From: Escherichia coli
Lineage (GTDB): Bacteria > Pseudomonadota > Gammaproteobacteria > Enterobacterales > Enterobacteriaceae
Reading direction: 5' to 3' (one strand)
Assembly: GCF_030384885.1 (NCBI RefSeq)
Contig: NZ_CP128613.1
DNA length: 64,000 nt
The translations under genes were made by a program, and so were the position numbers. Shown here in pieces: positions 12,100 through 59,249 of this stretch; the first letter of the stretch is position 1, and every line of letters starts with the position of its first letter. The notes under the pieces were generated by a model. It was not told the DNA's origin. It worked only from the letters and a program-made list of their open reading frames with translations, and searched no databases.

Positions 12100-13065
12100 T
12101 TATCCCACCCGCTGCTTATCATGCCGATAATTCACCCAGGCGTTGATAATAAACGTCATCACCAGAATGCCAAACACCACGCCCAGCGAAACGGCGATCG
12201 GAATATGGTAGAAATCGACAATTAGCATCTTGATACCGATAAACACCAGAATCACCGCCAGACCATATTTGAGCATCGAGAAACGTTCTGCTACGCCCGC
12301 CAACAGGAAATACATCGCACGCAGGCCGAGGATCGCAAACAGGTTTGAGGTCAGCACAATAAACGGATCGGTGGTCACGGCGAAAATAGCCGGAATGCTA
12401 TCCACGGCGAAAATCACGTCGCTCAACTCCACCAGAATCAGTACCAGCATCAGCGGCGTGGCATACAACAAACCATTCTTACGCACAAAGAAATGCTCGT
12501 TGTCGATGGTGTCGGTCATGCGCAAATGACCGCGCAGCCAGCGCACCAGCGGCTTGTCACCAATACCTGATTCATCTTCATGAGCCAGCGCCATCTTCAC
12601 GCCAGTAAACAGCAGGAAGGCACCGAAGATATACAGGATCCAGTCGAACTGCGAAATCAGCCAGCTGCCAGTGAAGATCATGATGGTACGCAGAACAATC
12701 GCCCCGAGTACGCCATACACGAGCACGCGGCGTTGTAATGCCGCCGGAACAGAGAAATAGCTGAACAACATCAGCCAGACGAAGACGTTATCGACCGCCA
12801 GTGATTTCTCAATCAGATAACCCGTGAGGAAGGCCAATGCCTGAGGGTCCGCGACTTCGCGCCCCTGTGTCTGCGCCAGATACCACCAGAAAGCGGCATT
12901 AAACAATAACGACAGTGTCACCCAGACCAGCGACCAGGCCGCAGCCTGTTTCATGGTCATGGCATGTGCCCCGCGACGCCCCTGCAACAACAGGTCGATA
13001 GCCAGCATAATGACGACAACAACAGCGAATCCGCCCCATAGCAACGGCGTGCCGACAGTATTCAT
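12100..13065 (-). CDS. alx: TerC-family membrane protein Alx (321 aa)
   Basis: ORF track 321 aa [37 protein letters not shown]... Confidence 0.9.
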
Positions 13066-13300
13066 AGAAGTTCCTTACACATAAAAAAACGGCCAACGTC
13101 GGAAGACGTCAGCCGCTGCTTTTTATGCATAGACCTCGCCTTCCGGCAAGGTCTCACTTACAACAAAAAAGGAATACGTCTGCGTATTCCTTTCGGGTTG
13201 CCCGGTGACCGGATGTGGTTTTTCACACATCGTAATGACGATCGACCGGCAATGAAGTTACTCCCCTTTGCAGGTAACAAAGTATGACAGACCATTCGGT
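13066..13300 (-). promoter_or_regulatory. alx 5' leader carrying a yybP-ykoY-type (Mn2+/pH-responsive) riboswitch element
   Basis: Minus-strand leader contains the conserved AAAGGGGAGUA motif (complement of 13255..13270) plus several hairpins; sits between ygjR stop and alx start, as in the described alx PRE/SraF leader. Confidence 0.6.
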
Positions 13301-13347
13301 CAGTCAATGGTCTGTTACATACCTTTTACACTGTTTTACTTTGGCTA

Positions 13348-14334
13348 TTATAGTTTTACGCTATCTGCCGGAAAAATCACCCCGGTCTGGCGGCGGATCT
13401 CGGTCAGCAGCCTGGCGGTGATACGACTGACCGCCAGCCCTGGATGATCTACCAGATGTTCATCCACCAGGGTAGCGAACAGCTCTGCTTCGTACAGCAT
13501 GGTATTAATATGCTGCGGCTGGGTAAGATCCTGCATCTGGCTGCCGCGCGGCACATAGCAAACTTTCTGGCATTCAGACAGTTTTTCAATCACCAGCGAT
13601 CCCGCTTCGCCCTGAATCTCACTTGCCAGCACAGAATCACTGACCTTTGAGTGCTGCAAGGTAACGCTGAAATCACCGTAATCCATCACCACCACGCCGT
13701 GGGCATCCACACCACTTGCCAGCAAACTGGCGGTTGCCTGCACGCTTTTCGGTTCACCAAATAACGCCACCGCCGACGCCAGGCAGTAAAAGCCGATATC
13801 CATAATTGAACCGTTAGAGAATGCTGGATTAAAGGTGTTGGGATTCTCGCCGTCCAGATAACGCTGATATCGCGAGGAATACTGGCAATAGTTGAAAAAG
13901 ACTTTACGCAATTTGCCAACTTTCGGCAGTACCTGGCGTAACAAATGGAAATTCGGTAGGCTGGCGGTTTTAAATGCCTCAAACAGCACCACCTGATTTT
14001 CCCGCGCACAGGCAATGGCGGCATCCACTTCCGCCAGATTCGACGCCAGCGGTTTCTCGCAAATCACATGAATTTTATGGCTAAGGAAAAGTCGTGTCTG
14101 GGGAAAATGCAGGGCATTCGGGCTGGCAATATACACCGCGTCAATAGCATCACTTTCTGCCATCGCTTCCAGCGATGTAAACAGATGCTCGACAGAAAAA
14201 TCATTGGCGAAGTGCTGGGCCTGTTCAAGGCTGCGGGAATAGACAGCGGTTAACTTGTATTTACCGCTCTCATGGGCGGCCTCGACGAACTGGCGGGTGA
14301 TCCAGTTCGTGCCAATCACAGCGAAACGTATCAT
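13348..14334 (-). CDS. ygjR: Gfo/Idh/MocA-family NAD(P)-dependent oxidoreductase YgjR (328 aa)
   Basis: ORF 13348..14352; start at MIRFAVIGTNWITRQFVEAA (Rossmann N-terminus), ATG 14332..14334. Confidence 0.85.
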   Translation of the reverse strand: MIRFAVIGTNWITRQFVEAAHESGKYKLTAVYSRSLEQAQHFANDFSVEHLFTSLEAMAESDAIDAVYIASPNALHFPQTRLFLSHKIHVICEKPLASNLAEVDAAIACARENQVVLFEAFKTASLPNFHLLRQVLPKVGKLRKVFFNYCQYSSRYQRYLDGENPNTFNPAFSNGSIMDIGFYCLASAVALFGEPKSVQATASLLASGVDAHGVVVMDYGDFSVTLQHSKVSDSVLASEIQGEAGSLVIEKLSECQKVCYVPRGSQMQDLTQPQHINTMLYEAELFATLVDEHLVDHPGLAVSRITARLLTEIRRQTGVIFPADSVKL

Positions 14335-20519: not shown

Positions 20520-21012
<493 letters not shown>

Positions 21013-36549: not shown

Positions 36550-36625
36550 TGGTGGCCCCTGCTGGACTTGAACCAGCGACCAAGCGATTATGAGTCGCCT
36601 GCTCTAACCACTGAGCTAAGGGGCC
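36550..36625 (-). tRNA. ileX: tRNA with CAU anticodon, ileX-type (tRNA-Ile2, lysidine-modified) including 3' CCA
   Basis: Reverse complement reads GGCCCCTTAGCTCAGTGGTTAGAGCAGGCGACTCATAATCGCTTGGTCGCTGGTTCAAGTCCAGCAGGGGCCACCA; cloverleaf with CTCATAA anticodon loop. Confidence 0.9.
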
Positions 36626-58647: not shown

Positions 58648-58724
58648 CCGGAAAGCGGTTCACAGATCTCGCTTCGAACCAGGCAGGCCTATTGACGCTG
58701 TTGTTTTTTCAACCTAAAGTAAAG

Positions 58725-58872
58725 GAACAAGGGTAAGGGAGGATTTCTCCCCCCTCTGAATTGGTTGTTAATAAGCCTGGAAACTTACTAGTAACAACAC
58801 AATCAGTATGATGACGAACTTCATCATAACCCTTTCCTTATGCAAGGCCCCTTCCTCGGGAGGGGCTTTCCC
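58725..58872 (+). ncRNA. sibE: Sib-type antisense sRNA (antitoxin of Ibs toxin), unit nearest hldE; 5' end approximate
   Basis: Plus-strand region fully antisense to the ibs ORF, ending in hairpin gcccct-tcctcggg-aggggc followed by tttcccgttt; plus-strand ORFs here (MMTNFIITLS...) are not taken as coding. Confidence 0.45.
58768..58827 (-). CDS. ibsE: Ibs-family type I toxin, 19-aa hydrophobic peptide MMKFVIILIVLLLVSFQAY
   Basis: Hand-translated minus-strand ORF (ATG ATG AAG TTC ... TAT TAA); typical Ibs sequence; symbol assigned from proximity to hldE and may be swapped with ibsD. Confidence 0.7.
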   Translation of the reverse strand: MMKFVIILIVLLLVSFQAY

Positions 58873-59101
58873 GTTTCAGCCCCTTGCTGGCTCCCCGATT
58901 GTTGATGAGCGCCGGACCCCGCGCAATGCTTTCCCTGATGCAGTTTTCTCTTCCCCGAGTCGGCTCGCAAAACGCTGTAACAACCTGATCATTTGCAGTT
59001 TTTTGTGGAACACAGATATAAAAAATCCCCGGTTTTTTGGGCCAGGGATATGTGTTAATGAAACCTTCTTGACGCTGATTTTTTTTCAACCTAAAGTAAA
59101 G

Positions 59102-59249
59102 GAACAAGGGTAAGGGAGGATTTCTCCCCCCTCTGAATTGGTTGTTAGTAAGTCGGGAAACTTAACAGTAACAACACAATCAGTATGATGACGAACTTCA
59201 TCATAACCCTTTCCTTATGCAAGGCCCCTTCCTCGGGAGGGGCTTTCCC
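59102..59249 (+). ncRNA. sibD: Sib-type antisense sRNA, second unit; 5' end approximate
   Basis: Second copy of the repeat; same terminator hairpin at 59224..59243. Confidence 0.45.
59145..59204 (-). CDS. ibsD: Ibs-family type I toxin, 19-aa peptide MMKFVIILIVLLLLSFPTY
   Basis: Hand-translated minus-strand ORF in the second repeat unit; differs from the first copy at four residues. Confidence 0.7.
   Translation of the reverse strand: MMKFVIILIVLLLLSFPTY

Follow-up and report, generated by a model that had tools for sequence, protein, structure and literature searches.

The alx leader (PRE/SraF) of Escherichia coli read as a pH-tuned Mn2+ riboswitch with two alternative conformers

The leader of the alx gene described here is almost certainly the PRE/SraF element, a cis-acting Mn2+ riboswitch that is tuned by alkaline pH and raises expression of the TerC-family exporter Alx. 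It is an already known feature, and the comparative results agree with the published models in each helix. Its discovery as the small RNA SraF came before its description as the pH-responsive element PRE, and its pauses and terminators have been characterized (PMC9472077). An initial annotation of this DNA had read the interval as the alx leader with a Mn2+/pH-responsive riboswitch; that reading finds support in the L1 strands, an L3-like loop, the alternative hairpins, covariation, the TerC gene, and the literature. The present analysis demonstrates the motifs, the aptamer helices, the TerC gene, the hairpins that resemble terminators, and, through covariation, both conformers. Mn2+ binding, the effect of pH, the translational readout, and the termination efficiencies are taken from the literature.

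Published work has established the biology, and the alx leader serves as a model system for how one RNA integrates metal and pH signals. The aptamer has been described as a three-way junction that lacks P2, carries a terminator in P4, and has a distinct L3, with terminators at 110 and 190 nt (PMC12153347). Mn2+ stabilizes the docked three-way junction as judged by smFRET, and a crystal structure is available (PDB 9JGM; PMC12934788). Mn-dependent changes in structure probing and induction of reporters have also been reported (PMC12153347, PMC10197570). Translational alx fusions are induced 68-fold by alkaline pH and 21-fold by Mn in a PRE-dependent way, with transcription changing ~2-fold (PMC10197570). 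In the published work, alx-like riboswitches are reported from the Enterobacterales only (PMC12153347, PMC9472077, PMC12934788).

The locus, its promoter, and the regulated gene

The window, meaning the whole 64-kb stretch of E. coli DNA that was analyzed, carries the leader on its minus strand. Upstream lies ygjR, a 328/334-codon gene for a Gfo/Idh/MocA oxidoreductase whose coding sequence ends at 13348, and downstream lies alx, whose ATG occupies 13065–13063. These coordinates bear out the placement of the leader between the two genes. Its length had been given as ~230 nt, which does not hold, as the noncoding gap is 282 nt (13066–13347) and the transcribed leader is ~207 nt (transcription start ~13272). 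The interval first singled out, 13066–13300, cuts across the alx promoter and leaves the −35 box outside. The point that the long ygjR–alx gap is no missing gene was well taken, given that the gap is a regulatory RNA. The 501-nt ygjR–alx stretch was found in 5419 of 5426 complete E. coli genomes at 95–99.8% identity. The promoter features and the regulated gene are as follows.

13302–13307, minus strand: putative −35 box of the alx promoter, TTGACT; most of the 72 distinct orthologue sequences keep TTGAC at constant spacing before the aptamer
13279–13284, minus strand: putative −10 box of the alx promoter, TACTTT, after a 17-nt spacer and within a conserved TGnnATAYTTTG block
13272, minus strand: predicted transcription start of alx (+1 = U), placed by the fit of published positions
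12100–13065, minus strand: alx coding sequence, the regulated gene; 321 codons, PF03741 TerC (E = 1.3e-53), RefSeq name alx, RefSeq product name "Mn(2+) exporter Alx"

The likely transcription start comes from comparing positions published in PMC12153347, PMC9472077, and PMC12934788 with the window sequence. With +1 at 13272, A11 (in L1), A37 (in L3), U18.A114, and C19.G23 all fall on matching bases, and the −10 box sits 7 nt upstream. The pauses at C36, C58, and C73/A74 and the terminators at ~108/110 and ~190 nt fit this numbering as well. As this is the sole numbering that places all of the published landmarks on the right bases, 13272 is taken as the start.

The alx −35 box lies within an inverted repeat (CAGACCAUU..AAUGGUCUG) at 13288–13314 on the minus strand, after which comes the T-rich −10 region. 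Its positions are 67% paired in the 72 distinct orthologue sequences, with more than one or two kinds of pair at each position, and slid controls reach 31–41%. The repeat is probably the intrinsic terminator of ygjR, overlapping the alx promoter. A promoter-like site on the plus strand at 13325–13354 was set aside; it is antisense within the 3′ end of ygjR, and the count of such matches is near the shuffle level.

The yybP-ykoY-type core that had been noticed in the leader is present as AAAGGGGAGTA at 13259–13269 on the minus strand and is unique in the window (1 copy in 64 kb, with 0.00 expected from 100 shuffles). The multiple hairpins were also borne out, with two terminator-like hairpins at 13194–13167 and 13117–13088. 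The alternative structures that had been suggested take the form of two mutually exclusive downstream conformers, each with covariation. The sense strand of the leader folds at −95.1 kcal/mol (z = −8.67), which none of 200 shuffles equals, and the opposite strand gives z = −4.09. Given the unique motif, the hairpins, and the sense-strand z score, the leader observation is real and well beyond chance.

The ~190-nt SraF RNA could instead be mainly an independent trans-acting small RNA and not a cis leader. It was discovered in a small-RNA screen and ends at a canonical terminator (PMC9472077). However, SraF is always found directly upstream of alx, in 75+ species, and its switch strand is coupled to the ribosome-binding site in cis. 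To our knowledge, SraF also has no target. Deletion of PRE abolishes regulation in cis (PMC10197570). A mainly trans-acting SraF is very unlikely; some trans activity on top of the cis function is possible. The cis-acting leader is the reading followed below.

A three-way-junction aptamer outside the reach of RF00080

A total of 80 alx orthologue loci were fetched, ranging from Escherichia to Yersinia, Serratia, Pantoea, Erwinia, and Mixta. The motif GGGGAGTA lies upstream of alx in 73 of the 80, with an L3-like GTCA..TAC at a fixed distance of ~27 nt downstream of it. GAGACC is found in 78 of the 80 loci, ~90–100 nt before the alx ATG, and the distance from L1 to GAGACC ranges from ~80 to 140 nt. 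An explicit three-way-junction structure was scored on an alignment of 72 Enterobacterales aptamers, where 97.7% of cells are paired, versus 20–44% when the partners are slid. Changes on both sides are seen at 14 pairs, and none of 500 shuffles scores as high. The helices that covary are P3.1, P3.2, and the base of P4, with examples such as GCCGGU/ACCGgGC versus GCUGAU/AUCAgGC and CAAC/GUUG versus CGUC/GACG. P1.1 and P1.2 are invariant within the alx class and for this reason have no covariation support of their own. The parts of the aptamer map to the window as follows.

13146–13271, minus strand: Mn2+ aptamer of the three-way-junction type, nt 2–127, comprising P1.1, L1, P1.2, L2, P3.1, L3, P3.2, and P4
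13259–13271, minus strand: 5′ strands of P1.1 (GCAAAGG) and L1 (GGAGUA); contains the AAAGGGGAGUA motif of the initial annotation, unique in the window and invariant in 69 distinct orthologues
13250–13254, minus strand: L2 junction loop C19–G23, with 3–5 nt between P1.2 and P3.1 in all sequences, taking the place of the P2 hairpin
13232–13239, minus strand: putative L3 metal-binding loop GUCAUUAC, with A37 at 13236; CGUCA..ACG is invariant and flanked by the covarying P3.1 and P3.2
13146–13159, minus strand: 3′ strands of P1.2, L1, and P1.1 (AAGUGAGACCUUGC), invariant (in part through sequence selection); the switch strand, common to P5

With transcription starting near 13272, nt 2–127 would form a yybP-ykoY aptamer of the three-way-junction type. 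P1.1/L1/P1.2 would make up one leg and P3.1/L3/P3.2 the other, with the metal site predicted to lie between L1 and L3. A short L2 loop would stand in the place of P2, the variable P4 arm would hold the first intrinsic terminator, and the 3′ strand of P1.1 (CCUUGC) would act as the switch.

The conserved L1 5′ strand GGGGAGUA, which follows the 5′ strand of P1.1, has an exact match at 13259–13266, within AAAGGGGAGTA, and its core is the same in mntP and the consensus of RF00080. L2 reads CAUUG and variants of it, the P2 hairpin is absent in all 69 distinct sequences, and PMC12934788 names the C19–G23 loop the "L2 capping loop." The 69 distinct sequences show no variation in the two L1 strands or in the L3 core CGUCA..ACG, an invariance that for the GAGACCUUGCC anchor is partly due to how sequences were selected. 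The L3 loop differs from the ACAUACU consensus of the RF00080 family, and the equivalence of A37 to the conserved metal-contacting adenosine is literature based (PMC12153347, with the chimera PDB 6CC1; PMC12934788, with PDB 9JGM). The alx-type L3 consensus is UCAUUAC (PMC12153347). The features of the alx-type three-way-junction subclass, i.e., the L2 loop, L3 UCAUUAC, P4 placed between P3 and the L1 3′ strand, and a P5/P6 platform upstream of alx, are all present in the window.

A covariance model built from the alx alignment, R1, gives one match in the 64-kb window, at 13145–13274 with 116.9 bits, as expected by construction. R1 also recovers intact aptamers in five held-out orthologues at 66–100 bits despite insertions of 60–160 nt in P4 or P3.2.

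The leader admits open reading frames of 31, 35, and 49 codons, as ribosome-mediated attenuation through a small leader peptide would need. The frame that opens at the ATG in P3.2 was rejected, as it spans 4 to 56 codons in the orthologues with no conserved peptide. Indels in P4 also shift the frame, and conservation of the ATG is due to its place in the P3.2 stem. Leader-peptide attenuation has a negligible probability next to the aptamer reading.

Several orthologue loci carry insertions or deletions in the aptamer. REP/BIME-like or ERIC-like elements of ~130–270 nt are inserted in the P4 arm in three loci, those of Escherichia albertii (L005, ~815–1121), Siccibacter (L014, 848–1118), and Franconibacter (L035, ~730–1117). 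These loci keep L1, L3, and P1 intact (R1 66–99 bits), and P4 looks like an insertion-tolerant hot spot. Two further loci are natural loss variants. In Atlantibacter sp. RC6 (L029, 1089–1115), a clean deletion joins L1 to the P5 strand (GGGGAGUCACUUCCUUGCCGGAAGGCGAG), and P3, L3, and P4 are lost. In Rouxiella aceris (L078, upstream of 1201), no aptamer precedes alx, and what is left there is the P6 hairpin and its U-run alone.

The initial annotation had offered an Rfam scan with the yybP-ykoY model as its check, with the lack of a significant match in the interval to count against the riboswitch; no RF00080 match was found there. RF00080 (Rfam 15) gave no match over the whole window at the gathering threshold and none at E ≤ 10 on a 601-nt slice or on a 151-nt aptamer slice. 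It also gave no match at E ≤ 1 on 20 diverse orthologue loci. The positive control, the mntP leader of E. coli K-12 (matched at 1962–2058 of locus L003), reached 41.6 bits (E = 7.6e-10), with the gathering cutoff at 45 bits. Because RF00080 is built on a four-way junction, misses 20 of 20 alx-type leaders, and leaves mntP below the cutoff, it is the Rfam test that is unsound, not the reading. The alx leader is missed owing to its lack of a P2 hairpin, its divergent L3 (UCAUUAC, not ACAUACU), and its long and variable P4. Weak Rfam matches to STnc370, STnc240, Spy392987, and miRNA families were rejected as fits to generic terminator hairpins only.

The lack of an Rfam match does not exclude a riboswitch, as RF00080 misses the whole three-way-junction alx class. 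No riboswitch feature is annotated upstream of alx in the PGAP RefSeq record or the MG1655 record, and none is annotated at mntP in the MG1655 record. Annotation pipelines apply the Rfam gathering cutoff, which neither E. coli Mn riboswitch reaches, and the gaps in RF00080 leave thousands of RefSeq E. coli genomes with no riboswitch annotation at alx or mntP.

The same whole-window scan did detect other RNAs elsewhere in the window: SIB, FMN, naRNA4, tRNA, and ES036. Two tandem SIB RNA antitoxin genes lie at 58692–58842 and 59069–59219 on the plus strand (RF00113, 143 and 142.7 bits) and are presumably a pair of Sib/Ibs type I toxin–antitoxin loci. An FMN riboswitch aptamer at 62686–62834 on the plus strand (RF00050, 120.9 bits) is presumably the ribB leader. 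Four naRNA4/CssrE matches stand in tandem at 20580–20959 on the plus strand, ~100 nt apart (RF02564, 64–74 bits), as a REP/BIME-type repeat array. A tRNA gene is found at 36553–36625 on the minus strand (73.1 bits), and a marginal match to the ES036/CssrF sRNA at 464–504 on the minus strand (38.4 bits with a cutoff of 37.6).

Alternative conformers and the output of the switch

The region from GAGACC to the start codon was aligned in 71 orthologues for analysis of the expression platform. Its elements, together with the P4 terminator and the ribosome-binding region, are given below.

13161–13194, minus strand: inner P4 hairpin and U-run, a predicted terminator-like site corresponding to intrinsic terminator B, with transcripts of ~108–110 nt
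13131–13154, minus strand: P5 hairpin AGACCUUGCC-GGAA-GGCGAGGUCU, an OFF-state element that sequesters the P1.1 3′ strand; 91.3% of cells paired
13081–13117, minus strand: P6 hairpin and U-run, corresponding to intrinsic terminator D, with transcripts of ~190 nt (SraF RNA); 95.5% of cells paired
13137–13145, minus strand: 5′ strand CGGAAGGCG of the alternative ON-state P5/P6 helix, pairing with 13100–13108
13100–13108, minus strand: 3′ strand CGUCUUCCG of the alternative ON-state P5/P6 helix, whose formation excludes the P6 hairpin
13063–13076, minus strand: ribosome-binding region, with the Shine–Dalgarno AAGGAA at 13071–13076, the spacer ACUUCU, and the AUG at 13063–13065

Without Mn2+, a downstream strand would capture CCUUGC to form P5, after which P6, the second terminator hairpin, would form. 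In this OFF state in E. coli, the freed L1/P1.2 strand would pair with the Shine–Dalgarno region. With Mn2+ bound, P1.1 would be kept in the aptamer, and the 3′ half of P5 (CGGAAGGCG) would pair with the 5′ half of P6 (CGUCUUCCG). The ON state would then have neither P5 nor P6, allowing the mRNA to be read through and translated. This scheme follows the published P5/P6 models, in which Mn binding favors an alternative "P5/P6" helix and a free ribosome-binding site (PMC12153347).

Both conformers are seen in the alignment. P5 and P6 of the OFF conformer are jointly 93.7% paired, the 6-bp core of P5 is in the minimum free energy (MFE) fold of 68 of 72 orthologues, and the P6 hairpin at 13117–13088 has 2 pairs with double changes. 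The alternative P5/P6 helix is paired in 99.4% of cells and has 3 covarying pairs, 2 of which link bases of the P5 and P6 tetraloops of the OFF state. In Citrobacter, for example, GGAA changes to GAAU together with a change of UUCC to AUUC. Covariation between two loops has no reason unless the alternative helix forms, and it supports the ON conformer. This covariation provides independent evolutionary support for the proposed ON-state helix.

When the two states are enforced, the mean energy is −95.6 kcal/mol for OFF and −66.4 kcal/mol for ON, making the OFF fold ~29 kcal/mol more stable. This large difference suggests that the ON state must be captured kinetically during transcription, in agreement with the published kinetic model. 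A need for kinetic control would also favor the original PRE model, which has a purely pH-responsive RNA where alkaline pH alters RNA polymerase pausing and folding, no ligand takes part, and the likeness to a Mn riboswitch is vestigial (the historical model cited in PMC9472077). However, neither the two L1 strands nor the L3 core vary in the 69 distinct sequences across the order, unlike a vestigial site, and the gene under control exports Mn. Published experiments found that alkaline pH does not lengthen pausing (PMC9472077), that the pH response requires Mn binding (PMC12153347), and that cytoplasmic Mn rises upon alkalinization (PMC10197570). Mutants of the metal site lose the pH response (PMC12934788). 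A ligand-free element is extremely unlikely, the model having been largely refuted already, and the Mn2+ riboswitch tuned by pH is the reading that is kept.

The initial annotation had described the control of alx as translational. This holds for E. coli according to the literature but is incomplete, as two intrinsic terminators in the leader also contribute. Inner P4, which holds terminator B, differs from genus to genus in both length and sequence, and the P4 base covaries. Termination in vitro is ~46% at terminator B and ~13% at terminator D, whose ~190-nt product is SraF (PMC9472077).

In E. coli, the MFE fold pairs AAG and ACUUCU of the ribosome-binding region with C16–U18 and G8–U13 of the freed L1/P1.2 strand, as published. 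The L1–RBS pairing is found in the MFE folds of only 24 of 72 orthologues, and the z score of the L1–RBS duplex has a median of −0.45 in the orthologues versus −2.7 in E. coli. Modeled accessibility of the Shine–Dalgarno sequence in the enforced states is 0.49 for OFF versus 0.54 for ON, with ON higher in 35 and lower in 22. Duplex and MFE analysis and constrained partition-function accessibilities in the orthologues thus gave no robust signal of conserved RBS sequestration outside Escherichia. With these data, it becomes questionable whether L1 also occludes the RBS in genera other than Escherichia.

One answer would be that the output across the Enterobacterales is Mn2+-dependent antitermination at P6, with RBS occlusion by L1 as an addition in Escherichia and its close relatives; we consider this unlikely. 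The P6 stem, the U-run, and the anti-P6 helix are near-universal and covarying, and the L1–RBS pairing is limited, with a weak duplex z score and a small change in Shine–Dalgarno accessibility. Many yybP-ykoY riboswitches outside the Enterobacterales work by a terminator/antiterminator choice. The ~190-nt terminated product SraF is present in vivo (PMC9472077). However, E. coli transcriptional fusions respond ~2-fold versus 68-fold for translational fusions (PMC10197570), and termination at site D is only ~10–13% in vitro and nearly pH independent (PMC9472077). Equilibrium folding models miss kinetic or tertiary effects on the RBS, and the extended P6 stem ends 1–2 nt before the Shine–Dalgarno sequence and could block the RBS sterically.

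Since P6, its U-run, and the anti-P6 helix are conserved but RBS pairing is weak, the ancestral output was possibly attenuation or a steric effect at P6. In a related reading, what selection maintains across the Enterobacterales would be a switch between the P6 terminator and the anti-P6 helix, acting through attenuation or through steric hindrance of the RBS by P6. The L1–SD pairing on which the published "translational" model is based would then be specific to the Escherichia lineage, and pH coupling may be lineage restricted. Such an output at P6 is rated as doubtful because termination at P6 in E. coli is weak and barely condition dependent (PMC9472077).

The pH coupling bears on position 19 of the leader. 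A C19.A114+ wobble was proposed for pH sensing in a 2026 preprint. At C19 (window 13254), 55 of the 69 distinct orthologue sequences have C, 12 have G, and 2 have U, and A114 and G23 are invariant in all of them. The C19G variants are concentrated in Pantoea, Mixta, Pluralibacter, and related loci. As C19 is not universal, pH coupling may be limited to some lineages.

Two loci have ERIC-like insertions of ~130 nt in the platform. In Erwinia persicina (L036), the insertion is within the P6 region, and in Phytobacter diazotrophicus (L034), it is between the P6 U-run and the RBS. These insertions put extra sequence between the switch and the start codon, and regulation may be changed or uncoupled as a result.

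Comparison with known manganese riboswitches

The closest known system is the E. coli alx leader PRE/SraF itself (PDB 9JGM). The window element is that element, and all of the published landmarks fit. The window copy comes from a non-K-12 lineage (best matches 99.8%) and shows no difference of substance.

The mntP (yebN) leader of E. coli is a relative with many of the same parts. The L1 5′ strand GGGGAGUA is common to both, with 13259–13271 of alx matching UUGGGGAGUAG in mntP. Both also have the L1 3′ strand GAGACC plus a P1.1 switch helix, where AAGUGAGACCUUGC in alx matches GGCGAGACCAUAUG in mntP, and the 3′ L1/P1.1 strands read GUGAGACCUUGC in alx versus GCGAGACCAUAUG in mntP. Compensatory differences are found in P1.1 (GCAAAGG/CCUUGC in alx versus CAUUUGG/CCAUAUG in mntP) and in P1.2 (ACU/AGU versus GCC/GGC). 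Each has an L3-like loop of GUCA..UAC type between two helices (GUCAUUAC in alx versus GUCAACAUAC in mntP), and each is an ON switch with a Mn exporter gene downstream.

The two leaders also differ. The mntP aptamer is a four-way junction with a 6-bp P2 hairpin (AUUUCC/GGAAAU), whereas alx has an L2 loop of 3–5 nt, and L3 is ACAUACU in mntP versus UCAUUAC in alx. In alx, a long P4 holds one terminator, and the platform contains a second. Unlike alx, mntP is not pH-responsive on its own (PMC10197570). With default filters, the alx-type model R1 gave no match on the mntP leader. With filters off, its best match falls exactly on the mntP aptamer but extends over the outer P1.1/L1/P1.2 frame only; at 6.7 bits (E = 0.088), it agrees in position but is too weak to serve as statistical proof of homology.

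Compared with the wider yybP-ykoY/RF00080 family, the alx leader has the L1 strands, the dual-use 3′ strand of P1.1, and a Mn-efflux gene downstream. The link between the leader and the TerC gene is kept in 75+ species. The family traits absent in alx are the four-way junction with P2 and a score of at least 45 bits. The transcriptional yybP-ykoY switches, i.e., yybP/ykoY of B. subtilis, yoaB of L. lactis, and that of X. oryzae, have a P1.1 3′ strand that is common to the platform hairpin, as in alx (general background and PMC12153347). In these Firmicutes and Xanthomonas switches, metal binding prevents the terminator, and the choice in alx between P5/P6 and the alternative helix follows the same logic (general background and PMC12153347). 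Their aptamers are four-way junctions that act mainly through transcription termination, whereas E. coli alx is reported to be mainly translational, with weak termination at P6.
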